DNA of 12,153 bases from a virus (IMGVR_UViG_2693429719_000002:1-12153), one strand, 5' to 3'. Numbered from the stretch's first letter, positions 1 to 12,064 are shown. The notes: generated from the sequence alone by a model not told the origin. Translations and numbers: made by a program.

Positions 1-314
1 TGGGCGTAATTCCGGGAAAGCTGCTCATACGAGACACCCAGCCCGGCAGCGATATACCGCAGCAGTGACTGCTCAAACACGGAGTAGCCGTTATCCGTAT
101 CCTGAGCCGTCTGCAGGTTCAGTGAGTCACCCGGCATCAGGTGCGGTACTTTTGCGCCTCCCAGCCGGACCGGCGCTGCGGCGTAATACGCGGCAATTTC
201 ACCAATCCAGCCGGTCAGCCTTTCCCGCTGCTCCTGACTGTTCGCGCCCAGAATAAAATCCATCGCTGACTGCGTATCCAGCTCACTCTCAATGGTGGCG
301 GCATACATCGCCTT
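1..314 (-). CDS. B: Lambda-type portal protein, C-terminal portion (begins ...KAMYAATIESELDTQSAMDFILGAN...); separated from its N-terminal portion by the insert; runs off the window start
   Basis: Minus-strand translation from 314 downward is open to position 1 and reads as the direct continuation of the portal sequence that stops at the right junction (SAIVKA | MYAAT...). Matches my recollection of lambda gpB; not listed in the ORF track because it touches the window edge. Confidence 0.85.
302..314. other. attL junction: core ATCGCCTT (307..314) within CATACATCGCCTT
   Basis: Same 13-mer with one mismatch occurs at 11230..11242 (CATAAATCGCCTT). The identical 8 bp at 307..314 and 11235..11242 is the likely crossover core. 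Confidence 0.7.
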
Positions 315-388
315 TATGAAAAGACAGGAAAAAATAAAATTTAAAAACAGTACATTACGAATACTCAAACCTATCGTTTAAAGGAGTC

Positions 389-410
389 GCAATACACATT
401 GCAATACACG
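389..410 (+). repeat. Tandem GCAATACAC(A) repeats near attL, putative integrase arm-type binding sites
   Basis: gcaatacacattgcaatacacg at 389..410 is nearly identical to 11084..11105 near the other end, between int and attR. Confidence 0.5.
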
Positions 411-650
411 ATTATTTCTCAGATGAGCGGCAAGCATCCAACAACTATCCGTCATAAAGCTGGTGGATGATCACGGATAAACCGTTATGGGAATCCCCAT
501 ATCGGCATCATGCCCACCAGCGTGGCGCATTTTTTTAATTTCGCGGGTTTAAAAATTTGACGAGGCTGGCGGTCCCATAAGCAATGGGGTGTAGGGATTC
601 CGATCCCCCCGGGGTATTAAACACCCACCCTATTTAAATACCGTCTTTTT

Positions 651-700
651 TGTCACTGTGTGTCACTGGTTGTCACTCTCCGTCACAGTATGTCACCATA
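651..700 (+). repeat. Five phased 10-bp repeats (TGTCACnnnn x5)
   Basis: TGTCAC/CGTCAC at 651, 661, 671, 681 and 691, exactly 10 bp apart, just downstream of the last minus-strand gene. Confidence 0.6.
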
Positions 701-702
701 AG

Positions 703-987
703 TTAACGTCGTAACCGCTCCGGCTTCTTCCACTGGTACGTAATTTTTTCTTTCTCCTGGTACATCTGCACGCGGCGACGGTATGACAACATCTCCAGAA
801 CTCTGCTCCGTATGTCGCGCATATCCACGCCGTTAAGCTCAATACCGTCACGGCGCATCACCTCAGCCACCACACGCGCGTAATTTTCGGCTATCACGCT
901 ATCCGGCTGCGTGGCCTTCTGTTTGCCTGCTGCCTGGCTGGCTCCGGTAATGCAGCGAATCATTTTGAGCATTTCGGCTTCGGTCAT
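703..987 (-). CDS. Hypothetical protein (94 aa from ATG at 987; ORF-track version starts at TTG 1017)
   Basis: ORF in track; GGAGG lies 8 nt upstream of the ATG at 987. No family recognised. Confidence 0.5.
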   Translation of the reverse strand: MTEAEMLKMIRCITGASQAAGKQKATQPDSVIAENYARVVAEVMRRDGIELNGVDMRDIRSRVLEMLSYRRRVQMYQEKEKITYQWKKPERLRR

Positions 988-1024
988 TATCATGGCCTCC
1001 GTGGTGATGGAAAACAATGCCGTA

Positions 1025-1250
1025 ATTGTGGCGGGTCCTTCCTGGAAAATGAAACACCGGGGGTAGCCATACGCGCAATTCTTAACTGTTTATGAAAATT
1101 TTTCGGGAAAAGCCAGATCCGTTCTTCTTCTCTGTAACTCATTGTTTAATGGTAAAATCATCAAAAAAAGAAAGGATCTGACAGTGGTCATTTTGGGCCA
1201 AAAATGACGTTATCAGATCCTTTCTCAGTTTTGTTCAATAATTGCGCGGC
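1025..1250 (+). other. Second cos-like segment in plus orientation: lambda-cosB-like arm with three R-site-like elements carrying CAGATCC instead of CGTTTCC, and a diverged cosN-like segment
   Basis: Plus strand 1080..1250 aligns to the remembered lambda left arm (TTTATGAAAATTTT.CGG, CGTTCTTCTTC, AAAAGAAAGGA, GACAG.G, CCTTTCTC.GTTTTTGT). The position equivalent to cosN reads CGGGGGTAGCCATACGCGC, not GGGCGGCGACCT. Confidence 0.5.
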
Positions 1251-1252
1251 TG

Positions 1253-1780
1253 TCACTCACCTTTCTGTTGCCGTAATTTCTCCGGTACGTTTCCGGTTGT
1301 TTCCATCAGATAATCGGACATCATCAGCGGGATATTTTCATCAAGTTTTGCGCATGCGTTACAGGCTCTGATAACTTCTTTTTTCAGGCCATCCAGCATA
1401 GACGGCTTCATATCGGGAAACTTCCTTATCATGACAAGTGGCAGGCTATCCATGATTGAAGAAATCTGACTCGCCAATTTTGAAAGCACGTATATACAAA
1501 ACGCTGTATCAATAACGTCGCCGCGTTCACGCTCGTTTTTAAGCTCCTGCGCCTCTGCCTGTGCTGTCAGTAATCTGATCCTGACTCGTAGGAGTTCATC
1601 ATCATCAATCTCGCCCGTTTCGTTTGTAATCTGGCTGATTGCATTGTTAACCCGATTATCTATTACACTGGCGACATCATAAAACGCCTCGCGGCCCTTA
1701 CGCTCGACGGGAATCACTCCCCACTTATCGAACGCAGTGGCGCTTACACGGCAACTTTTTGCCATGTTTTTTTTGTTCAT
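1253..1780 (-). CDS. Terminase small subunit, lambda Nu1-like (conserved C-terminal part, divergent N-terminal winged-HTH)
   Basis: C-terminal two-thirds aligns to lambda Nu1 (LLTAQAEAQELKNERERGDVIDTAFCIYVLSKLASQISSIMDSLPL... vs [46 protein letters not shown]...). N-terminus is related but substituted in the putative recognition helix. Start set at the internal ATG (MNKKN, 1780) by alignment with Nu1 MEVNKK. Confidence 0.85.
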   Translation of the reverse strand: MNKKNMAKSCRVSATAFDKWGVIPVERKGREAFYDVASVIDNRVNNAISQITNETGEIDDDELLRVRIRLLTAQAEAQELKNERERGDVIDTAFCIYVLSKLASQISSIMDSLPLVMIRKFPDMKPSMLDGLKKEVIRACNACAKLDENIPLMMSDYLMETTGNVPEKLRQQKGE

Positions 1781-1894
1781 CAGGTGCAATTTCATTGATA
1801 CCACAACTTAATTACTGTTTCAGGTTGGTGTATTGATTGTACTTTTCTCTTATTATTCATGCAGATACAGCGAACAACAAAACCACCACCAGTC

Positions 1895-1990
1895 CCCTTA
1901 AAATGCTCATAAATAGCGAAAACCCGCGAGGTCGCCGCCCCGTAGCCTACCGGATCGCCGGAAAGGACCCGCCAGCCAGAACGGGCCCTA
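1895..1990 (-). other. Lambda-type cos site (cosQ-like sequence, cosN, first ~22 nt of the left arm) upstream of the Nu1-like gene
   Basis: Minus strand reads GGCGGGTCCTTTCCGGCGATCCGGTAGGCTACG GGGCGGCGACCT CGCGGGTTTTCGCTATTTATGA, near-identical to the remembered lambda right end, cosN and left end. Sequence then diverges from lambda cosB (1781..1894). Confidence 0.75.
1929..1940 (-). other. cosN cohesive-end sequence GGGCGGCGACCT (minus-strand reading)
   Basis: Plus strand shows AGGTCGCCGCCC, the exact reverse complement of the lambda 12-nt cohesive end. Confidence 0.75.
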
Positions 1991-1996
1991 ATTTCA

Positions 1997-2380
1997 TCAA
2001 CCAATCAACTTATAGCGACCATCCCGCGCATTGCGACGTACACGCTCAATCTTGAGGCATAGCGCCGCATCTGGCTTTTTTGGGACAGGTACGCGGCAAT
2101 ATTCAGAAGCTCGAGGAATATTGTTTATCCAGTCGATCACTTCACTTAAATACCAGGCCTTACGCCCTTCCGTAACCTGTACGCGTTCGGGGAACTCTCC
2201 GCGAGCCTCAAGGTTTAGCAATGTGCGACGGCTAAGGGTAGTAAGTTCCATCACCTGATTCATATCAACAAGGCGTTCACTTAAACGCATTTTGTCAGCA
2301 ATAGCCTTTAATTCCTCTACTGCTGGATCCGGATACATCATTTCGGCAATTGGCTTAAGGTCATTGTAATGATTCTGCAT
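1997..2380 (-). CDS. AlpA-family helix-turn-helix protein with a ~40-aa N-terminal extension (second AlpA-like gene of the island)
   Basis: Contains MNQVMELTTLSRRTLLNLEARGEFPERVQVTEGRKAWYLSEVIDWI, typical of AlpA/excisionase-type HTH. GGGGG RBS 5 nt upstream of ATG; starts 11 nt after the decoration gene stop. Confidence 0.65.
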   Translation of the reverse strand: MQNHYNDLKPIAEMMYPDPAVEELKAIADKMRLSERLVDMNQVMELTTLSRRTLLNLEARGEFPERVQVTEGRKAWYLSEVIDWINNIPRASEYCRVPVPKKPDAALCLKIERVRRNARDGRYKLIG

Positions 2381-2391
2381 TGTATCCCCCT

Positions 2392-2733
2392 TTACACACG
2401 AGCCAGCGGCTGAACAGAAATACCTGAGCCAACAAACGCGGCAACCTTTGCCGACAGTTCTTTTACAGACTCAGGCCAGTTCAGAGCATCAACATTTAAA
2501 ACACCTGTCTTATAAACCTGTGCCTGTGTTTTTTTCGCTGTGTCGATTTGTACAGCGGAAACATAAACCGCTTTACCTACGCTCGAACCATCCCATACCA
2601 CCAGTGCACCTGTTGCATCTTCCTGCATCAGTGGCGTAAATGCAGGAATTACCCCTTTATTAGCTGAAAATATCCCCAGCGTAGTCACCAGTGCTTCAGT
2701 GCCAGCCATGAGTTCAGTGTAATGAGTAGCCAT
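2392..2733 (-). CDS. Head decoration protein, lambda gpD-like
   Basis: Aligns to lambda gpD (TPLMQEDATGALVVWDGSS vs TPLMLDTSSRKLVAWDGTT; WPESVKELSAKVAAFVGSGISV vs [23 protein letters not shown]). Confidence 0.8.
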   Translation of the reverse strand: MATHYTELMAGTEALVTTLGIFSANKGVIPAFTPLMQEDATGALVVWDGSSVGKAVYVSAVQIDTAKKTQAQVYKTGVLNVDALNWPESVKELSAKVAAFVGSGISVQPLARV

Positions 2734-2742
2734 TGCTCCCCC

Positions 2743-3789
2743 TTAGCCAATGCGAACGGTAACAAAACGATTGATGCGGGCCGGTATTGGCTGTGGTGCT
2801 GAATGTGTCTGCACATATTCAATAGCCGGATCACCAGGCACAATATAGTTTTTCGGTGCAAGTTCGGCTTTAGTCAGCCCCATTCGGATTAGCTCCGGAT
2901 CCTGAATACCGCCATAGGCGACAATCCCCTGAAGAGCCGTATTGCCAAGCACCATCAAATCAGGATCAAGGAAATGTTTTTCTGTTCCGTCCTCGTCGGT
3001 ATAACGCCCGCTGTAAACAACAATCGCAACATCGCCCATATACCCTTTAAAACTCACCGAATCACCAAGGTCTTTAAGGGCCGTTTCCAGTTCGGAATTA
3101 GAACCACGACGGGTATCCAAAGCCTCTTTTATCGCTCTGAATGAACGGTATTTCTTCCATACATTACCACCCATAATGATGATATTAGTGACGCCCTCAC
3201 TAAATTCTGCGTAGCTCTCAATATCATCATTTGGATCAAAAGTTTCTTTATCCTTACCTGACCACTCAGTACCGCCAGACTGAGTGATGATATTTTGTGG
3301 TTTTATATTCCAGTCCAGCTCATAACGTTCAATACCATCGCCCTCAATGATATTTTTCCCCGTTGTGATTGCCTGAACAGCAAGCCATTCAATACGTGCA
3401 CGAATAGCTTTAGCCTGATTTACAATCGCCTGTTTAACTTTAATATTACGCGCCCCAAAAGCATTGTATTGCTCAGGTGACACACCAGCAGGGCGCACAG
3501 CTAACTTATTTGGATCAATGCTGCTTTTCGGCTTCATATAACCTGGACGAATTGTTTTTGATTCGTATCCCTCATCTCGTGAAACTTTACTGCCCACCAT
3601 AGGAGAGCAAAACGCCGCGATCGGGATATTTGGATCGTCGATCGTATCAAGAATAATGTCTCTCGATTCAAACATTACCGAGCGAGTGAAAAACAAACTG
3701 GTAAACAACGCATTTAATTTTTTTTGCACATCTTCAGCATTAGCCACCTGCACAAGCTGTGTAGGCGAATATAAATCAACCATACTCAT
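2743..3789 (-). CDS. Major capsid protein, lambda gpE family
   Basis: Strong similarity to lambda gpE (NIITQSGGTEWSGKDKETFDPNDDIESYA vs NITQSGGTEWSKRDKSTYDPTDDIEAYA; LDTRRGSNSELETALKDLG; GDVAIVVYSG; MVLGNT). Start trimmed to MSMVDLY (3789), AAGAGG RBS adjacent; the ATG at 3783 is an alternative. Confidence 0.9.
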   Translation of the reverse strand: MSMVDLYSPTQLVQVANAEDVQKKLNALFTSLFFTRSVMFESRDIILDTIDDPNIPIAAFCSPMVGSKVSRDEGYESKTIRPGYMKPKSSIDPNKLAVRPAGVSPEQYNAFGARNIKVKQAIVNQAKAIRARIEWLAVQAITTGKNIIEGDGIERYELDWNIKPQNIITQSGGTEWSGKDKETFDPNDDIESYAEFSEGVTNIIIMGGNVWKKYRSFRAIKEALDTRRGSNSELETALKDLGDSVSFKGYMGDVAIVVYSGRYTDEDGTEKHFLDPDLMVLGNTALQGIVAYGGIQDPELIRMGLTKAELAPKNYIVPGDPAIEYVQTHSAPQPIPARINRFVTVRIG

Positions 3790-3954
3790 CCTCTTTACAT
3801 TCATTACAAATAATTGTGAATATATTCTATTACCGATGTCTGCTATGCGAATACATGCAACCAAGTGCAATGTTGTATAAAATATGCCGTAACAACTTCA
3901 GTGCTGATAATTCGTGTTAATGTATTTACTTCCTTTGGTCGGGATTTATGTAGC

Positions 3955-3983
3955 ATGCCGGAAAATCTATTTTTTTCCGGCAT
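3955..3983 (+). terminator. Perfect 11-bp inverted repeat (ATGCCGGAAAA ... TTTTCCGGCAT) followed by CTTTTTGTTTG on the plus strand
   Basis: Read directly; lies in the SSB-capsid intergenic region. T-run follows only on the plus strand, antisense to the operon. Confidence 0.3.
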
Positions 3984-4000
3984 CTTTTTGTTTGCAGAAT

Positions 4001-4423
4001 TTAAAACGGTATATTATCGCCGTACGGATCATCATTCCCCGACTGTTGTTTTGCCCTGTTCAGTGCGTCAGTGGCCTGCCCCTGCTGGCCTTTTTTGCCG
4101 CCCGGTCGCGCCGTTCGCGCACTGATTACGCTGTCTGCGATAACCTGCCAGCCCCGCCGCGTTTCGCCGTTCTGGCCTGTCCACTGGCTTACCTGCATGT
4201 TACCCGCCACGCTCACCAGTTCGCCTTTGTGGTGTCTGGCCAGTGCGTCAGCCTGTCTGCCAAACGCCAGGACGGATAACCACATCGTCGCCGTTCCGTC
4301 ATCTGCCTGGCTGCACGGCAGGGGAACCGCCATACTCGCCATCGCCATTTGTGTCCCTTTGCTGGTGGTCTTTAACTGCGGGTCAGCCACCAGCCGCCCG
4401 TAAGCCGCTATCTGTGCTGTCAT
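4001..4423 (-). CDS. ssb: Single-stranded DNA-binding protein (SSB-like)
   Basis: OB-fold region similar to E. coli SSB (WLSVLAFGRQADALARH..GELVSVAGNMQVSQWTGQNGETR vs [43 protein letters not shown]). Acidic C-terminal tail ends ...DDPYGDNIPF, like DDDIPF. Confidence 0.8.
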   Translation of the reverse strand: MTAQIAAYGRLVADPQLKTTSKGTQMAMASMAVPLPCSQADDGTATMWLSVLAFGRQADALARHHKGELVSVAGNMQVSQWTGQNGETRRGWQVIADSVISARTARPGGKKGQQGQATDALNRAKQQSGNDDPYGDNIPF

Positions 4424-4665
4424 GCTGTCTGCTCTCCGGTTTTAACGTTGATGGTTGTCACCTGTTCCGCTTCGGCAATCTCCCGTTCTGTCAGCGTGGC
4501 AAAGTTTGCCGCCGTCGTGGCCATGAATGCGCTTATCAGTTCGGGATGTGCTTTCGCGTATCCCTCTCCCGCGTTGCGGTCGATGATTTTTATCGCCACC
4601 CTCAGCCAGTGTTCTGTCAAATCAAGGGCGTGAGATTGTGGTTTTTTTGCGTGCTTCGTTGTCAC
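4420..4665 (-). CDS. Hypothetical protein (81 aa, GTG start), translationally coupled to ssb
   Basis: GAGGT lies 7 nt upstream of the GTG; stop overlaps the ssb start (ATGA). No family recognised. Confidence 0.5.
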   Translation of the reverse strand: MTTKHAKKPQSHALDLTEHWLRVAIKIIDRNAGEGYAKAHPELISAFMATTAANFATLTEREIAEAEQVTTINVKTGEQTA

Positions 4666-4699
4666 AGGCTTTACCTCACAGCAATAAAATAAAATTTTT

Positions 4700-4945
4700 G
4701 CATTTTAACCCTTCACCTGTTCACCTTTTGCGATTTTCCCTTTTTATTCATGATGTTAAGGGGTGAACAGTTTCACAAAAACTATTCACCAACTGTTCAC
4801 CACTGTTCACCCTTAAAGCTCAATAAATAATCAAAAAGGTGAACAGTGAATAGTTTGGTGAACAGTTCACAAATAACTGTTCACCCTATAATGTACTGAT
4901 ATAAAAGACATTTATGACAGGGTGAACAGTGGTGAACAGTTATTC
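4700..4945. repeat. Iteron array (about 10 copies of GGTGAACAG / CTGTTCACC in both orientations) in an AT-rich region; putative origin of replication
   Basis: Copies at about 4716, 4762, 4782, 4792, 4803, 4838, 4857, 4878, 4921 and 4931, immediately downstream of the primase-helicase gene. Confidence 0.65.
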
Positions 4946-4952
4946 CATAAGT

Positions 4953-6758
4953 TTAATTTTTTCCATCGTCATTTGTGACCGATGTACATGATGGCATCCA
5001 GTCTTCTGAATCCTCTGTCAGGGTCACATTTGAACGCAAACCGTGCTTCGTTTTCCGTTTCATATACTCCCTGCCATATTCCGCCATTGCCCCCGGCATA
5101 TCTTTACCGAAGCGCGTCAGTGTTACAGGTTTACCGAATCCGTGTGCCCTCATATATGCCAGATAGGCGTGATAAAGATACCTGCGCGGACTGAACGGAA
5201 TAATTTCGGCATTACCCACTAACAGACCATCACACATTACCGACGACATGAGATAGCCGCAGAAGTCCACCAGCGAATCGCCCTCGCGTTTTATCACCAG
5301 AGCTTCTTCTGATTTCTGCTGCTCATACAGCAGGCGTTTAGCTTCGTCCTGGTCAGAAAAACGAGTAAGCAGGTGGCGAATCACAACCGCCAGCTCTCCT
5401 TCTATTTTTTCTGCCAGCATGGGGTCGCGTTCGTTTTCCGGTACAACCTCCGAAAAATTGAATATCACCCGACGACGTGAGATCCCCCCGCTGCGGTCAC
5501 TGAATGACATGGCGTTATTGTTCACCGCCAGCACGACCGCCTGAATGCGTGTTGAGTAGGGAGCTTTATGTTTCGGGTCAATTGCCACCTTGTCACCGCC
5601 TGTAATGGCCTTAATTCCTGCACCATCACCAGCGTAGCGGGTCATATCCGGCATGATAATCAGCGAAAAGCCAACCACTAACGCGCGTTCCCTGGCATCT
5701 TCCAGCGCCTTCATGCTTGCCGACACCGTGTTGGCCTTACCCGCCAGCATGGTGCAAATCTCCGCCATTACGCTTTTACCGCTTCCACCCGGCCCCGTTA
5801 CCTCAAGAAATAACTGCCAGTCGTATCGGTTCGCCAGCACCATGAATAACGCCGCCAGTACGCGATCCGCTTTACGGTCATTCTCTGCCACCGAACGGCG
5901 CAACCATTTCCAGAAATTCGGCGCATGCGTTGCCAGCGTTTCCCCCTCTGCTGGTGGGCTGAACGGTAATTCACTGGCAATTAACAGCCAGTCGTTTTTG
6001 TCATGCTCCCGAAAATCGCCTGTCCGGGTATCAAAAACACCGTTACTGAATCCAATCAGGTTACGGGCGGTATTTCCCATTACGGGCAAACTTAACTTCA
6101 TGGTATCGACCGCCGATTTGATGGCGTTCTGCGAATAACTGATCTCCGCATCAATAAAAATCTGCGCCATAGCCCGCTGTAACTCTTTATCCTGTACCGG
6201 CTCCCATACAACGCCGTTGTAGTGGTGAACTGTGTCAGAGTCCGCATTGATTGCCAGTTCACCGCCATAATGGGCCAGGAGAACTTCGCCGCGCTGGCTT
6301 GCTCCCATCTGGTTAAGCGCCAGTGGTGCGGCGCTGTCTTCTGTTTTTTTCTTAACAGGAAGCTGAATAACCAGACCATCAGAAAGATTCTGGCGCTCAC
6401 GCTCCAGATATTCGCGCCACTCCTCCCGCTTCTGGCTGTGCATTCCCTCAGGGTAATAATTCGCATCCCGTACACCTGCCGCCGCCAGCTTTTGCCCGAT
6501 GGCATTAATATTTGACGGCTTGATGTGGCCTGCCTTGTACAGCCGGACACAATAGCGACCATCGTCGATAATTTTCAGGTCTGCCAGTTCGTCAAGCTGG
6601 CTGTCTCCCAGCCATACAGGCGGAACATTGTCACCAGCAAGTCGCCCGTCCTGCTCCTGCCATTGTTTCGCGTGCGCCCAGGCATCACTACCCGCAAAAA
6701 TAATGACTTCGGTCATTTTGTCGTGCGGCTGTTTTTTTAAGTTCGGTGCCAGTTTCAT
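4953..6758 (-). CDS. Primase-helicase / replication initiator with P-loop NTPase domain
   Basis: 601-aa ORF with Walker A motif (EVTGPGGSGKSVMAEICTML) and an N-terminal primase-like region. Usual position for a satellite replication protein, followed by iterons. Confidence 0.85.
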   Translation of the reverse strand: MKLAPNLKKQPHDKMTEVIIFAGSDAWAHAKQWQEQDGRLAGDNVPPVWLGDSQLDELADLKIIDDGRYCVRLYKAGHIKPSNINAIGQKLAAAGVRDANYYPEGMHSQKREEWREYLERERQNLSDGLVIQLPVKKKTEDSAAPLALNQMGASQRGEVLLAHYGGELAINADSDTVHHYNGVVWEPVQDKELQRAMAQIFIDAEISYSQNAIKSAVDTMKLSLPVMGNTARNLIGFSNGVFDTRTGDFREHDKNDWLLIASELPFSPPAEGETLATHAPNFWKWLRRSVAENDRKADRVLAALFMVLANRYDWQLFLEVTGPGGSGKSVMAEICTMLAGKANTVSASMKALEDARERALVVGFSLIIMPDMTRYAGDGAGIKAITGGDKVAIDPKHKAPYSTRIQAVVLAVNNNAMSFSDRSGGISRRRVIFNFSEVVPENERDPMLAEKIEGELAVVIRHLLTRFSDQDEAKRLLYEQQKSEEALVIKREGDSLVDFCGYLMSSVMCDGLLVGNAEIIPFSPRRYLYHAYLAYMRAHGFGKPVTLTRFGKDMPGAMAEYGREYMKRKTKHGLRSNVTLTEDSEDWMPSCTSVTNDDGKN

Positions 6759-7069
6759 TTTGCCTTTCCCCGTTCACGAATAATTTCACGTACTGCCTTA
6801 ATGCGTTCCATACCTGTAACGCGCATGATTCTGTCGATGTCGCTTAAGTTCGCTGGTGGTGCTTTGCTTACCAGGGTGAATTCACTCTCAAAACGCATAT
6901 GTGACGACACGCAGGGATGCGCATAACCTTCGCGGATATAAGTCACGCGAAAATCGTCAACGGTTTTTATCGTTATTCGTCCGCCGTATTTATCTTTGAA
7001 AATATCGTCGGGGCGGATTTCAGGCCGAGCGGGGCCGCTGGCAGTAAAGCCAGAATTTTTCTTTTTCAT
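6755..7069 (-). CDS. Hypothetical protein (104 aa), translationally coupled to the primase-helicase gene
   Basis: ORF in track; stop overlaps the primase start (ATGA). No family recognised. Confidence 0.55.
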   Translation of the reverse strand: MKKKNSGFTASGPARPEIRPDDIFKDKYGGRITIKTVDDFRVTYIREGYAHPCVSSHMRFESEFTLVSKAPPANLSDIDRIMRVTGMERIKAVREIIRERGKAK

Positions 7070-7075
7070 GTTTTT

Positions 7076-7294
7076 TTACTCCAGAGGCAGCTTTTTAGCG
7101 GCGAGCTCAATATCAGATGTCAGAGAAACCTGTGTATTTGCCAGGTCTAACAACAAAGAAATAAGAATTTCCTCTCTGCTATCGGATTTATCGGTGCTAA
7201 GGCTGTTCATCCACATATTGACGACTTCCCTGATTTTTTTCGCGGAGTGCAGGGCTTCAAATGCCAGGTCTTCAATATCACGTTTATTTCGCAT
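7076..7294 (-). CDS. Hypothetical protein (72 aa from ATG at 7294)
   Basis: ORF in track; start moved to the internal ATG (MRNKRD) preceded by a GGGGG RBS. Confidence 0.45.
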   Translation of the reverse strand: MRNKRDIEDLAFEALHSAKKIREVVNMWMNSLSTDKSDSREEILISLLLDLANTQVSLTSDIELAAKKLPLE

Positions 7295-7529
7295 AATCGC
7301 CCCCACCATTTTCACAATCAACAATCAGGATGGCTTTAGCCTCATTCAGCGCCATATCAGCGGTAAGCTGCACATATGCCAGCGAATGCGGGATTATCGC
7401 CCCTGTATATTCCGGCTCTCTGGTAATGTGTTTTTCTGCGGTTGCTGCCGTGCATGAAATATCAATCAGCGCGTCCATCAGCGTTCTGATGGCTTCGCCT
7501 GCTGCGTCCGGCGTGTTTTTATTGCACAT
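7284..7529 (-). CDS. Hypothetical protein (81 aa)
   Basis: ORF in track; start overlaps the stop of the upstream 68-aa gene; GGGGG RBS upstream. Confidence 0.45.
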   Translation of the reverse strand: MCNKNTPDAAGEAIRTLMDALIDISCTAATAEKHITREPEYTGAIIPHSLAYVQLTADMALNEAKAILIVDCENGGGDYAK

Positions 7530-7725
7530 GGCGCACCCCCTGACGAATACGGGCGGCGAATACCATCACACAGCCATCAGGAGATTGCTGGCGTGCTTCC
7601 TGTTCGCTGGTGGCCTCGATGGTAATCACGCGCGGCTGTGCCGTGCTCAGGGCGATAAAACGCCAGATGTATTTATTCAGGTTGTACGAGTCCCGCCCTT
7701 GCGGGTGTGTGGTATGATTTAACAT
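7522..7725 (-). CDS. Hypothetical protein (68 aa), first gene of the leftward operon
   Basis: Corresponds to the last 68 codons of the 411-aa track ORF 7519..8754. ATG at 7725 has GAGG 5 nt upstream; the upstream part of that long ORF is judged spurious. Confidence 0.5.
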
Positions 7726-7823
7726 AGCTACCTCGATACTTCTGCTATCGTTGGTGGTTAGAAGCCCCGTTACTGCTCCTACAGTGCGGGGTTTCGTCGT
7801 TTCTGCACCTTGCATTAACAAGG

Positions 7824-7900
7824 TGTAAGTAACTTTATTTATAGGTGGCTTACATGTCAATGCTTTTATGTAAGACTTTTTATGTGTATATTGTCTTACA
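7824..7900. promoter_or_regulatory. Divergent promoter region with two ~31-bp operator-like elements (TGTAAG-N19-CTTACA)
   Basis: TGTAAG at 7824 and 7869, CTTACA at 7849 and 7895. A TTGACA -35 for the leftward operon (reverse complement of 7855..7860) abuts the first element. Confidence 0.5.
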
Positions 7901-7921
7901 CTTTCATTGAGAGGATTACAG

Positions 7922-8227
7922 ATGGCTACAGGTTCAAAAAACGCAAAATCACAATCACTGACAGCTCGGATCCCGCATGATGTTATTGAAGGCATGGAAT
8001 CCGTAAAACTGGACGGTGAAAGCAACGCCGGATTCATCGTAACCGCCATGCGCGGTGAAATCGCCCGCCGCCAGGCAGAAGGAAGCGGAGAAAACCTCCT
8101 GGTTTCTTCGCTCGATGCACTGGCGCAGGTGGAAAAAATCGGAGTCAAAGCAGCCGAGGAGATCGGGCAACTCATCACCGTCGCGCGTGAAGAACTCCAG
8201 CGTCGCAAGGCCAAAGAGCAGGAGTAA
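7922..8227 (+). CDS. Small regulatory protein, possibly ribbon-helix-helix type (101 aa)
   Basis: ATG at 7922 with GAGAGGA RBS 6 nt upstream. N-terminal SLTARIPHDVIEGMESV resembles an RHH strand-helix motif (weak, by eye). Sits next to the operator-like repeats. Confidence 0.5.
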   Translation: MATGSKNAKSQSLTARIPHDVIEGMESVKLDGESNAGFIVTAMRGEIARRQAEGSGENLLVSSLDALAQVEKIGVKAAEEIGQLITVAREELQRRKAKEQE

Positions 8228-8284
8228 CCATCACCAGCGCCGTGGTGCGACGAACTGTGGCGCACAGGGTTACAGGTATCTACG

Positions 8285-8482
8285 ATGACTGACAAATCAT
8301 TAAAGAAATTATCCTCATCCAGGAAAAAACAACGCAAAAACGCGGTAAGCGAACAAGAACAGGAAAGATTCGCGCCATGTGCGTTTGTCCTTGAGAAGTT
8401 CCTTAACGAGTACAGGCGCACAAAAATGGGATCGCATACCTGGAAAACATCGCAGCATGGCGATGCTAAAGAGCAGGAATAG
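8285..8482 (+). CDS. Hypothetical small basic protein (65 aa)
   Basis: ORF in track; weak RBS. Its last residues and stop context duplicate those of the upstream gene (AKEQE). Confidence 0.35.
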   Translation: MTDKSLKKLSSSRKKQRKNAVSEQEQERFAPCAFVLEKFLNEYRRTKMGSHTWKTSQHGDAKEQE

Positions 8483-8585
8483 CCCACCAGCAAGCCAGCA
8501 CACTGATCACATTGCCAACCGGATGTAATCACGGCATAGTAATCAGCGCTCATGCGTTGGGGATAACGCGCAATTAGTGTTGAAG

Positions 8586-8613
8586 GGCCACCGTAGCGGG
8601 TGGCCTTTGTTTT
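8586..8613 (+). terminator. Rho-independent terminator (GGCCACC-GTAGC-GGGTGGCC + TTTGTTTT)
   Basis: GC-rich hairpin followed by a T-run, about 100 bp downstream of the plus-strand genes. Confidence 0.6.
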
Positions 8614-8666
8614 GCCTGTTATCCGGCAATTGTGGCGCTTCGTCACACGGTTGATATAATTCCCCT

Positions 8667-8740
8667 GCACTGATCCATTTTTTTCGCAGCAGGTTAATTG
8701 TTCGCAAGGGCGCTCCGGCAACGGGGCGCTTTTTGTTTTT
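8667..8740 (+). ncRNA. Candidate small RNA (~75 nt) between an extended -10 promoter and a strong terminator
   Basis: TGATATAAT at 8652..8660; terminator at 8710..8740; no ORF in the interval. Confidence 0.3.
8710..8740 (+). terminator. Rho-independent terminator (8-bp stem with GCAA loop + TTTTTGTTTTT)
   Basis: GCGCTCCG-GCAA-CGGGGCGC followed by an 11-nt T-rich run. Confidence 0.65.
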
Positions 8741-8898
8741 ACCCACCAGCACAATAAAAATCTTCATTTTCCATTTTTGTAAAATTTCATGCTTTCCGGA
8801 TGGCTGGCCATATGTCATTTTTTAGCAGAAGATTTTGCCTTGCTGGTGGATAGCTTCCCGGTCAACACGATGTACCGTATAATCAGCACCGCGTGTGG

Positions 8899-9477
8899 TT
8901 ACTGAATACGCTCACCAAAGTAAAACTCAGGCTGATATTCACGTATCAGCCTTTTTTCTTCTTCCTCCAGCTCACGCTTTTTGCGCTTACATGCCTGTAG
9001 CTCCCTCCCCTTCTCGCTGGCACTTATCCGGTATTGCTCTTTGCGGCGGGAAAAATCCTGTAATGCGCCCCACGGGATACCATAAGCCCCCGTTTTTCTG
9101 ATACCCGGTATCACATTTCTGAATACCCAATTACTGAAACTATGAGCAAATGTGCCAGGCGTCATTGCTTTGCGGCTACGGGCTATTAGTTTGTAGAAAC
9201 CTGACTCAGAGATAATGCTCATATTCTGATTTCCTCCGGGGGTGTAAGTTAAATTTACTCCCTTTTCATCATCATCAAGCATCTGCAACGCCGTACGCGA
9301 ATTGGTCAGTTCCAGCGCAGCGCAGACATCCTTTGCAACAAACCACGGATCGCCGTTCAGATACACCACGCGAACGTTCACACCATCAAAGCGCAGAACG
9401 ACGAGATCACGAATATCGCAGAATTTTTTCACTGGACGAGCGTACCCCTTGCCCGTCACGGCAATATTTTTATTCAT
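8899..9477 (-). CDS. Bro-N domain protein (putative antirepressor-like)
   Basis: Bro-N signature read by eye: VRVVYLNGDPWFVAKDVCAALEL...SESGFYKLIARSRKAM...FSNWVFRNVIPGIRKTGAY. Confidence 0.8.
   Translation of the reverse strand: MNKNIAVTGKGYARPVKKFCDIRDLVVLRFDGVNVRVVYLNGDPWFVAKDVCAALELTNSRTALQMLDDDEKGVNLTYTPGGNQNMSIISESGFYKLIARSRKAMTPGTFAHSFSNWVFRNVIPGIRKTGAYGIPWGALQDFSRRKEQYRISASEKGRELQACKRKKRELEEEEKRLIREYQPEFYFGERIQ
8929..8958 (+). terminator. Plus-strand hairpin + T6 inside the 3' end of the Bro-N coding region (antisense)
   Basis: AGGCTGATA-TTCACG-TATCAGCCT followed by TTTTTT; a TATAAT at 8878..8883 lies upstream. Confidence 0.4.
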
Positions 9478-9494
9478 CGCGTTTTGACCTTATA

Positions 9495-9520
9495 GACAAA
9501 AAACCCCTCGTAATGAGGGG
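9495..9520 (-). terminator. Rho-independent terminator downstream of alpA (CCCCTC-ATTAC-GAGGGG + TTTTTTG on the minus strand)
   Basis: Hairpin and U-tract begin 14 nt after the alpA stop. Confidence 0.6.
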
Positions 9521-9533
9521 CGTTATTTACTGG

Positions 9534-9791
9534 TTATTGCTGTTTTGTTTTTCCAGGTTTCCATCCAGGATGCCACTCACCACGGATCCACGCCTGAACC
9601 TCTGAAAGTCGATAGCCTGCCGCACGTTCGCCGATCTTGATACGTCGCGGGAATTTACCTGCCTGCTCCATTTTCCAGCGTGTTGAGTTTGCCAGCGTGG
9701 TAAGTGCTATGCATTCTTTTTCACGAATGAACCGATCAATGTCCTTCATTGCGCGCAAATCGTTTTCATCCACAAGAGAATAAATTGTCAT
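9534..9791 (-). CDS. alpA: AlpA-family transcriptional regulator / excisionase-like protein
   Basis: 85-aa HTH protein directly downstream of int (start 1 nt after the int stop); GAGGTGG RBS. Confidence 0.8.
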   Translation of the reverse strand: MTIYSLVDENDLRAMKDIDRFIREKECIALTTLANSTRWKMEQAGKFPRRIKIGERAAGYRLSEVQAWIRGEWHPGWKPGKTKQQ

Positions 9792-9792
9792 A

Positions 9793-11034
9793 TCACACCA
9801 CCTCTTTATTAAGCTCGATAACGTTGTTGTTAAATCCTGCTATCGTATTAAGGTAATTAACCCACATATTAAGCACCTCAAGTTTTTTCTTTATATGCCT
9901 GCTTTTATTGTAAACACCAGCAACCCCTTTCACTTTATGACCCAAAAGAAGTTCGACAATATAAGGATCCGCCCCCATATCATTAAGCATTGTGGAAAAT
10001 GTGCGCCTGAAATCATGTATGCACCACAAGCCATTAGTATCATGACCAAGACGCCTGCATATTCTGTTTGCAGCCCCTGTTATTGTCGCCCTTTGCAAAG
10101 CACAACCGACAACATAACCGCGATTCTTTGTTTCTGCGTAAAGATTAACGATCCATTGTTTTATACCGTCAGGAACGGGCCTTACTATGGCCTCACCGTT
10201 TTTGCTGTGCTCTTTTGGGACTGTCCATACCCAGTTTTTTAAATCCCATTCTTCCCAGGTGGATAACCTCGCCTCCTGCTGTCGACAACCAAACGCCAGG
10301 CATATCACCATAATTCTTCGGTTATGTATCGATGAGAGAGTAAGCAAATTATTTCCATAAGCATACGACCATACATCAGCAGTTTCATTGATGCTAAGAA
10401 CGCGATCCCGTATACCGGACGAGCGGCCTACATAACTTACATTAATGTCTCCAAATGGATCGCAAGCGATATATTGCCTGACGCGACAAAACCGCAACGC
10501 CTGTTTAATATCAAGAAAAATTGCACCAGACATAACAGGCGCATTTTTTTTAATCCTGTCAAAGACGGTAAGCCATGTGTGTAATTTGCACTGTTCTATG
10601 GCCATATCGCCGATATAGGGGAATATATGCTTTTCAAATCGTTTTATTAAATATTCATGCTCTTTTCTGGCTGTTGTGGCGTGATTGTCGTACCAGTAAA
10701 ACAGCGCATCCCTTACGGTCACTGGTTGCATAGTTTTTTCGGCAGCAAGTTTTATTTGCCTGCGGGGGTCCAGATTTTCAGCCAGCCATTCACGGCACTG
10801 ATCACGCATGCGCCTGGCAGTTGCAAGAGACATGTCAGGATAGCGACCAAGTGTAAGCCATACCGGAGGGGATTTCCTGCCACCAAGACGATAGTAAAAA
10901 ACAAAGCTTATCCCCCCGACCATGCTTACACGCACAGACAGCCCGCGACCATCCGCTATTGTTTTTTGTTTGTCCTGTCGTTTTCCGGCAAGACTCTTTA
11001 ACAGTTTGTCGCTGAGTTTGTTTTCAATAGCCAT
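9793..11034 (-). CDS. int: Tyrosine-type site-specific integrase (P4-like)
   Basis: 413 aa; C-terminal catalytic motifs HDFRRTF ... LLGHKVKGVAGVYNKS (H-x-x-R ... Y); sits next to the element end. Confidence 0.95.
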   Translation of the reverse strand: MAIENKLSDKLLKSLAGKRQDKQKTIADGRGLSVRVSMVGGISFVFYYRLGGRKSPPVWLTLGRYPDMSLATARRMRDQCREWLAENLDPRRQIKLAAEKTMQPVTVRDALFYWYDNHATTARKEHEYLIKRFEKHIFPYIGDMAIEQCKLHTWLTVFDRIKKNAPVMSGAIFLDIKQALRFCRVRQYIACDPFGDINVSYVGRSSGIRDRVLSINETADVWSYAYGNNLLTLSSIHNRRIMVICLAFGCRQQEARLSTWEEWDLKNWVWTVPKEHSKNGEAIVRPVPDGIKQWIVNLYAETKNRGYVVGCALQRATITGAANRICRRLGHDTNGLWCIHDFRRTFSTMLNDMGADPYIVELLLGHKVKGVAGVYNKSRHIKKKLEVLNMWVNYLNTIAGFNNNVIELNKEVV

Positions 11035-11052
11035 TAACAGCCCTCAAGAGAT

Positions 11053-11106
11053 TTGCAATACACACCCATCCCGATCGCCAATTTGCAATACACATTGCAA
11101 TACACA
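11053..11106 (+). repeat. Three TTGCAATACACA repeats between int and attR, putative arm-type integrase sites / int promoter region
   Basis: Copies at 11053, 11083 and 11095; the last two form the same 22-mer found at 389..410. Confidence 0.5.
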
Positions 11107-11182
11107 AAACCGCGAAAAACCGGAATAGTGGTGAACGGTCATCAAAAGTATGGAAAACGACATTCCAGACGCAGCAAGGGTT

Positions 11183-12064
11183 TTAGTGGAGTTGGCGAAC
11201 GATGCGGACAACTACGGTGAGATGATAGACATAAATCGCCTTCACAATGGCGCTCTGCAGCTGCGTGTTCTGCAGCGTGTCGAGCATCTTCATCTGCTCC
11301 ATCACGCTGTAAAACACATTTGCACCGCGGGTCTGCCCGTCCTCCACGGGTTCAAAAACGTGAATGAACGAGGTGCGCCCGCCGGGTAACTCACGGGGCA
11401 TCCATGTCCATTTCTGCGGCATCCAGCCAGGATACCCGTCCTCGCTGACGTAATATCCCAGCGCCGCGCCGCTGTCATTAATCTGCACACCGGCACGGCA
11501 GTTCCGGCTGTCGCCGGTATTGTTCGGGTTGCTGATACGCTTCGGGCTGACCATCCGGAACTGTGTCCGGAACAGTCGCGAGGGACTGGTATCCCAGGTG
11601 GCCTGAACGAACAGTTCACCGTTAAAGGCGTGCATGGCCACACCTTCCCGAATCATCATGGTAAACGTGCGTTTTCGCTCAACGTCAATGCAGCAGCAGT
11701 CATCCTCGGCAAACTCTTTCCATGCCGCTTCAACCTCGCGGGAAAAGGCACGGGCTTCTTCCTCCCCGATGCCCAGATAGCGCCAGCTTGGGCGATGACT
11801 GAGCCGGAAAAAAGATCCGACGATATGATCCTGATGCAGCTGGATGGCGTTGGCGGCATAGCCGTTATTGCGTACCAGATCGTCTGCGCGGGCATTGCCA
11901 CGGGTAAAGTTGGGCAACAGGGCTGCATCCACACTTTCACCCGGTGGGTTCCACGCCCGCAACTGCCCTCCAAATCCGCTGCCACCGCCGTGATAACCGG
12001 CATATTCGCGCAGCGATGTCATGCCGTCCGGCCCCAGAAGGGTGGGAATGGTGGACGTTTTCAT
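11183..12064 (-). CDS. B: Lambda-type portal protein, N-terminal portion; ends in 17 element-derived codons after ...SAIVKA
   Basis: 293-aa ORF starting [34 protein letters not shown], near-identical to remembered lambda gpB. Homology stops at the core, then reads [17 protein letters not shown] and terminates. Confidence 0.9.
11230..11242. other. attR junction: core ATCGCCTT (11235..11242) within CATAAATCGCCTT
   Basis: Direct repeat of 302..314 with one mismatch at the fifth base. Confidence 0.7.

Follow-up and report, generated by a model that had tools for sequence, protein, structure and literature searches.

Helper-embedded phage-inducible chromosomal islands (HE-PICIs) reside in the late genes of lambda-like helper prophages, are co-oriented with them, and have been described at 14 sites (Tommasini, Mageeney and Williams 2023, PMC10111431). 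One of these sites is B:Phage_portal_2:241, hereafter B:241. The supplement of that study contains dozens of Escherichia coli B:241 members of 10.4-10.9 kb with the attL/attR identity block 'aaggcgat' (PMC10111431). HE-PICIs also carry a specific motif, tgTGTATTGCantgTGTATTGCa, in two co-oriented copies, one about 81 bp upstream of the attP centre and the other about 132 bp downstream (PMC10111431). Here, we analyse an island in the viral DNA IMGVR_UViG_2693429719_000002:1-12153. The window is this whole stretch of 12,153 nucleotides; positions 1-12,064 are shown, and coordinates refer to the whole stretch. On its sequence features, the island is an HE-PICI of class B:241, inserted in the co-oriented portal gene of a lambda-like prophage.

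The closest experimentally tested relative is EcCICFT073, which resembles the island gene for gene in order from int to the last gene, has a similar length (~11 kb), and uses lambda-like helpers. In EcCICFT073 particles made with lambda, all DNA had phage size, which the authors took to exclude capsid size redirection (Fillol-Salom et al. 2018, PMC6092414). No PICI monomer band was seen when strain CFT073, which has the native helper, was induced. Deletion of c1499 (capsid) or c1500 (decoration) left transfer and interference unchanged, and with cat in place of c1499 transfer persisted at a higher frequency (PMC6092414). Their conclusion was that consecutive cos sites are passed over by the terminase (PMC6092414), and later publications restate that EcCICFT073 is packaged in phage-sized capsids or as phage-length concatemers (PMC6739421, review PMC6893505). 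The puzzle of an 11-kb cos satellite in a 48-kb head was posed for EcCICFT073 in 2018 and resolved there by experiment, and the helper-embedded arrangement was described in 2023. The element analysed here is therefore not new, but another member of a published and already described class.

Nearly all long open reading frames (ORFs) of the window are on the minus strand, which we call the gene strand. A direct repeat of 8 bp, ATCGCCTT (on the gene strand, AAGGCGAT), delimits the island at both ends; with one repeat copy counted, the island is 10,928 bp long (Table 1). The repeat by itself could be due to chance. The flanking sequences are the two portions of an interrupted portal gene. The Pfam profile PF05136 of lambda-family portal proteins matches 11183-12064(-) with its positions 2-242 and 3-308(-) with its positions 238-331. 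In the integrated state, the upstream portion finishes with a short tail from outside the gene. Rejoining of the flanks in silico produces a single open frame of 378 amino acids, 372 of which (98%) are identical to residues 1-378 of lambda gpB, with the junction located after gpB residue 276. Just within both island ends is a 21-nucleotide doubled motif, GCAATACACATTGCAATACAC, at 389-409 and 11085-11105. Since the portal halves, the rejoined frame, and the doubled motif agree independently, the ends of the island are fixed and its boundaries are real. They coincide with those in an earlier note on this DNA, made from the sequence alone, which had placed an island of about 10.9 kb at 307-11242.

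We assign the island to class B:241 because its core, its arm motif and the spacing of that motif, its size, and its gene order all agree with PMC10111431. The published block 'aaggcgat' and the repeat of the island are reverse complements of each other. The portal matches stop at profile position 242 and resume at 238, around the expected site 241. Counted from the middle of the core, the two arm motif copies lie at distances of 77.5 and 132.5 bp; their sum of 210 bp compares with a published 213 +/- 4. The genes int, alpA, and pri and the interrupted portal gene are all on the minus strand. DNA of the int-alpA-bro segment is 96.5% identical to Eco2613.11.B_Phage_portal_2_241 from strain CFSAN029787, which places the integrase in the HE-PICI clade by DNA identity, and the late zone is 97% identical to the same island. 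The island thus shares with B:241 HE-PICIs the target gene and codon position, the block 'aaggcgat', the distances of the doubled TGTATTGC arm motif, the co-orientation with late genes, the size of 10.4-10.9 kb, and the order of four gene zones. It differs from them in its mosaic centre and in a segment of its own at 470-700 with TGTCAC repeats. The mosaic middle (about 4600-8900) contains replication and regulation genes, and only 67-81% of the window can be aligned to any complete E. coli genome.

The integrase-side junction of the island is present in 64 of 5,426 complete E. coli genomes and the other junction in 59, and about 3,180 have the uninterrupted portal segment. Composites of this kind are found, for example, in E. 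coli GZEC065 (NZ_CP048025.1, 705.6-716.6 kb) and CFSAN029787 (NZ_CP011416.1). In a related complete genome, the island lies within an otherwise full lambda-type cluster composed of Nu1, A, W, split B, C, D, E ... J. The island is 10.4-11.0 kb long in 49 of the 55 complete-genome members; the six longer copies carry insertion sequences. The length is steady though about one third of the sequence is swapped between variants, which encode a primase or a RepA helicase and have differing early genes. Such constancy is a hint of selection on length and is compatible with either of the packaging models discussed below. The phage records that were searched do not contain the island, and they therefore offer no indication of joint packaging of helper and island. 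Phage record LR881103.1, 16.5 kb long and named 'Escherichia phage vB_KppS-Ant, induced prophage', contains a primase gene whose DNA is 79% identical to the corresponding gene of the island; the record resembles a PICI that was obtained from a lysate and deposited under the label of a phage.

Alignment of the joined ends of lambda to the window located the cos site of the island upstream of its small terminase gene. The exact lambda cosN, GGGCGGCGACCT, occurs once in the window and lies in a 72-bp segment with close similarity to lambda cosQ-cosN, in agreement with the earlier description of the island as cos-bearing. The segment is 93% identical to the helper-prophage cos at the related locus L001. 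Since similarity to lambda ends about 30 bp beyond cosN, the DNA between the lambda-like part of cos and terS is a putative island-specific cosB. The small terminase subunit (TerS) of the island is 38% identical to lambda Nu1, and the alignment includes the C-terminal gpA-binding part (15 of 41 residues identical). A second cos-like copy, inverted with respect to the functional cos, keeps cosB-like parts about 71-73% identical to lambda. It was at first read as the cos site of the island, until the alignment revealed its decayed cosN and the true cos on the opposite strand. EcCICFT073 has the same layout, with cos1 upstream and an inverted cos2 downstream of its packaging-specificity gene; both its cosN copies are intact, whereas the second one is decayed in the island. 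Deletion of cos2 raised the transfer of EcCICFT073.

One functional difference separates the packaging genes of the two islands. EcCICFT073 encodes RppA (144 amino acids), whereas the island has a full-length TerS of the Nu1 family, 180 amino acids long, at the same position. CFT073 RppA (L003:15660-16094) matches RppC in the PDB (6hlk) at 5e-31. RppA lacks the TerL-binding tail and captures the TerS of the helper (PMC6739421, PMC9026076). Rpp is not universal in Gram-negative PICIs, as those of strains IHE3034 and 18098 encode TerS instead (PMC6092414). EcCIIHE3034 has a TerS 81% identical to that of the island and a late zone of the same build, with capsid, decoration, one small gene, TerS, and a 93-amino-acid gene. 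It differs from the island in its chromosomal site beside clpS, in its integrase, and in having been tested, with a transfer of at most 40 per ml. The island has several features of Gram-negative PICIs: int-alpA followed by pri with a downstream iteron origin and by a late zone, a length within 10-20 kb, the lack of a full structural and lysis set, and a helper-like cosQ and cosN next to a divergent cosB. The position of the iteron cluster agrees with that of the PICI ori (PMC6092414). Protein identities to EcCICFT073 are 40% for the integrase and 69% for SSB, and those of the other proteins are listed in Table 1. EcCICFT073 is integrated beside phoQ on the chromosome, not in a prophage, and its arm repeats are 11,219 bp apart.

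Lambda-type packaging accepts about 75-105% of the genome length (roughly 37-51 kb) between cut cos sites. The 10.9 kb of the island correspond to 22.5% of lambda. The earlier note was therefore right that the island is far below this range, and it framed the two options correctly: a multimer in heads of helper size, or smaller heads with one or two units each. Four copies of 10,928 bp amount to 43,712 bp, which is 90% of lambda, whereas three copies give 68% and five 113%. Tetramers of 49 of the 55 complete-genome members (10.4-11.0 kb) correspond to 86-91% of lambda. The fit is weak evidence by itself, because for every monomer length from about 7.6 to 17 kb there is a multiple within the range accepted by lambda. 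In the attL alignment file of PMC10111431, the smaller of two data sets, the sizes of PICIs integrated at the fis site peak at 11 kb (n=17) and 16-17 kb (n=148), with few entries of 12-14 kb (n=4); the peaks correspond to roughly one quarter and one third of the lambda genome length. This pattern is not clean in the full table of that study, which is dominated by clones and includes many fis-site PICIs of 9-10 and 13 kb.

We propose, with a probability of roughly 0.7, that the island is an HE-PICI whose own TerS directs the helper terminase to package island tetramers into helper-size heads. The anatomy on which the proposal builds, namely the boundaries, the restoration of the portal frame, the cos, the gene set, and the class, is observed in the window. 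Upon induction, the composite prophage would excise and replicate. Integrase and AlpA would then cut the island out at AAGGCGAT and restore the helper portal gene. As this gene is intact only after excision, no heads would be built before the island is free. Excision is assumed here by analogy with the HE-PICI 11capE, which was observed to excise on induction (PMC10111431). The island would be replicated by its own primase from the iteron origin, and the resulting concatemers would contain a cos every 10.9 kb. The Nu1-type TerS would bind the island cosB and bring the large terminase subunit of the helper (gpA) to the lambda-identical cosN. DNA would be pumped into helper-built, helper-size heads. 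Since lambda-type terminase cuts a terminal cos only near head fullness, it would pass three cos sites and cut the fourth, yielding a tetramer of 43.7 kb. Phage-sized packaged DNA and dispensable capsid genes are carried over by analogy from EcCICFT073, and we infer the TerS-cosB specificity, the recruitment of gpA, and the copy number of four. Packaging in chains has a precedent in cosmids: Feiss and colleagues reportedly found, in about 1979-1982, that small cos replicons are packaged in vivo by lambda as chains of copies with a total of 75-105%. Cosmids resemble the island in being small cos replicons, and their chains resemble those proposed for it, but they are artificial and use the cosB and TerS of the helper.

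Several observations speak against this proposal. The B:241 class, this island included, is known from sequence alone. The PICIs of IHE3034 and 18098, the only TerS-type E. coli PICIs tested, reached a transfer of at most about 100 per ml (PMC6092414). The presence of capsid genes on the island, stated in the earlier note, is confirmed. The capsid and decoration genes are intact here and were found in all B:241 variants examined, including those with a swapped replication module, and they occur in 21 of 29 reference Gram-negative PICIs. The capsid protein, whose PDB matches are 3bqw (1e-121) and lambda gpE (7vi9, 9e-78), is a mosaic: residues from about 165 to 280 are 65-80% identical to gpE, whereas the N-terminal 150 residues are only 20-30% identical. 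Compared with EcCICFT073 c1499, the pattern of identity is roughly the opposite. A 136-bp stretch of the capsid gene is 74% identical in DNA to lambda E, and the mosaic suggests a past exchange with a helper capsid gene. We infer that the decoration protein is matched to the diverged part of the capsid protein. The pair looks like a working module, and packaging of tetramers into helper-built heads gives it no role. Satellites that encode a homologue of the major capsid protein of their helper also include SaPIbov5, which makes small capsids by means of Ccm, and PmCI172, for which small heads were observed, although the part of its capsid homologue was not tested there (PMC6092414, PMC6893505). 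Their proteins and helpers are unrelated to those of the island, and EcCICFT073, the closest tested relative, does not form small capsids. Most enterobacterial PICIs retain lambda-type capsid and decoration genes as an intact pair without a known phenotype, and the reason for this is a question of interest.

The pair would have a role if tetramers were packaged in full-size T=7 heads in which the capsid and decoration proteins of the island replace or mix with those of the helper, so that the composition of the shell is altered and not its size. Such shells might differ in stability or in visibility to defence systems. They agree with the phage-sized DNA of EcCICFT073 and explain the conservation of the pair, and the 115 central residues of the capsid protein with 65-80% identity to gpE might permit mixed capsomers. 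However, no phenotype was found for c1499 or c1500, and co-assembly is uncertain at 42% overall identity. We consider this explanation unlikely.

Alternatively, the capsid and decoration proteins of the island could build small one-genome heads together with the portal, scaffold, and protease of the helper, from which the helper genome of 45-50 kb would be excluded. Besides the intact genes, the divergence of the N-terminal 150 capsid residues, and the putatively matched decoration protein, this explanation is favoured by the small capsids of SaPIbov5 and the small heads of PmCI172, and by an island length kept at 10.4-11.0 kb despite swaps of the replication module. The capacity of small heads was estimated once by geometric scaling and once from the genome ratios P4/P2 and SaPI1/80alpha. 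According to the estimate, a lambda-like T=4 shell holds about 17-19.5 kb; one copy of the island would fill it to 56-65% and two copies to 112-131%, both outside the packaging range. A T=3 shell (about 12 kb) is the only one that suits a single copy, and we know of no isometric T=3 heads among tailed phages. Moreover, genes for a scaffold, a protease, and a portal are missing from the island. The earlier note took the capsid genes to favour small heads. This does not hold for EcCICFT073, which has homologous genes, packages phage-sized DNA only, and can dispense with the genes. Particles with only helper-size DNA and no small-capsid population, the outcome that the earlier note had named as refuting small heads, are the published result for EcCICFT073, which unlike this island does not encode a TerS of its own. 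We therefore regard small heads as quite unlikely. It is also improbable, in our judgement, that with the native portal-interrupted helper the pair forms island-specific small shells with one 10.9-kb genome each. Shells of this kind, unfillable by lambda-size DNA, would make the island an intermediate between classical PICIs, which steal heads, and capsid-forming PICIs (cf-PICIs), which make their own.

That the island is an immobile remnant which merely inactivates a defective prophage is highly improbable: TerS-type E. coli PICIs transferred poorly in the single available test and six of the 55 complete-genome copies carry insertion sequences, but all genes of the island are open, both cores, both arm motifs, and cosN are intact, and the related HE-PICI 11capE was observed to excise on induction (PMC10111431).

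The gene content separates the island from other types of satellites. All ORFs were scanned with Pfam and PHROGs, and none of those of the island was identified as a portal, protease, scaffold, large terminase, tail, or lysis gene. The cf-PICIs are described as encoding all proteins for their own small capsids, a set that consists of the capsid protein, portal, protease, head-tail connectors, TerS, and TerL. The island shares with them the possession of head genes and its own TerS; it differs in that its head and packaging genes, among all ORFs scanned, are limited to capsid, decoration, and TerS. P4-like satellites are likewise distinct from the island, as its ORFs had no match to the Psu and Sid families, the Rfam scan found no P4-type RNA, and its cos and flanking helper are lambda-type and not P2-type.

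Table 1 Features of the window in order of position.
Feature	Position	Strand	Evidence and remarks
Helper prophage portal gene (lambda B type), downstream portion	1-306	-	PF05136; continues past the window edge
Attachment-site core, late-zone end	307-314		ATCGCCTT, equal to AAGGCGAT on the gene strand; same as the listed B_Phage_portal_2_241 block
Doubled arm motif, copy 1	388-410	-	cgTGTATTGCaatgTGTATTGCg on the gene strand; repeat D9; matches HE-PICI motif tgTGTATTGCantgTGTATTGCa
Conserved 94-amino-acid protein, last island gene	703-987	-	phrog_1561; 71% identical to EcCICFT073 last gene
Degenerate cos-like copy, inverted relative to functional cos	1031-1232	+	Downstream of terS; cosN decayed to GGGGTAGCCATA
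Small terminase subunit (TerS), Nu1 family, 180 amino acids, full length	1253-1795	-	PF07471, E = 1e-24
Putative island-specific cosB	1805-1899	-	Between lambda-like cos part and terS; by position alone
cosQ-cosN segment	1900-1971	-	72 bp, 92% identical to lambda, E = 3e-25; contains cosN at 1929-1940
AlpA-like helix-turn-helix protein, late zone	1997-2380	-	PF05930, phrog_2790
Head decoration protein, gpD family	2392-2733	-	PF02924; 54% identical to EcCICFT073 c1500, 38% to lambda gpD
Major capsid protein, gpE family	2743-3789	-	PF03864, E = 4e-41; 55% identical to c1499, 42% to gpE
SSB gene and small conserved gene	4001-4423 and 4420-4665	-	PF00436, phrog_1231; homologues in EcCICFT073
Replication origin, cluster of direct and inverted GGTGAACAG iterons	4710-4952		Directly downstream of the primase gene; repeats D4, D6, I1, I2, I5, I8, I13, I17, I18, I24, I25
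Primase/helicase, D5 type	4953-6758	-	D5_N, DUF5906, Pox_D5; 48% identical to EcCICFT073 pri product
Small early genes: DUF4222; two hypothetical genes; Icd-like gene	6755-7069; 7076-7324, 7284-7529; 7519-7725	-
Divergent pair: YlcI/YnfO-family gene and 65-amino-acid gene	7907-8227 and 8285-8482	+
Bro-N domain protein	8899-9477	-	PF02498, phrog_2593
AlpA, activator/excisionase family	9534-9791	-	PF05930; 60% identical to EcCICFT073 AlpA
Tyrosine integrase with arm-binding domain	9793-11034	-	PF13356, PF00589, PF22022
Doubled arm motif, copy 2	11084-11106	-	Repeats D1, D9; extra half-site at 11051-11064
Attachment-site core, integrase end	11235-11242		ATCGCCTT
Helper portal gene, upstream portion, N-terminal 276 amino acids	11243-12064	-	PF05136 and rejoined frame

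The last island gene was initially taken for Rpp because of its identity to the last gene of EcCICFT073. This was ruled out, as the Rpp of CFT073 is encoded by the neighbouring 144-amino-acid gene. A PDB search with the 94-amino-acid protein gave no match, which also argues against Rpp. Its single-sequence AlphaFold prediction has three helices, with a pLDDT of 66 that is too weak for fold comparison.

The divergent plus-strand pair is followed by two strong terminator-like hairpins at 8583-8608(+) and 8706-8733(+). Another terminator-like hairpin, at 9503-9521(-), lies on the gene strand between alpA and the Bro-N gene and is reminiscent of regulated termination in the Bro region of P4. An Rfam scan for the P4-type immunity RNAs C4 and isrK found none. 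Just past the last island gene, at 651-696(+), five TGTCAC/CGTCAC hexamers are spaced by exactly 10 bp. The 230-bp segment at 470-700 that holds them has no match in three other B:241 islands (L001, L006, L007). The regular spacing belongs to what may be a protein-binding array.

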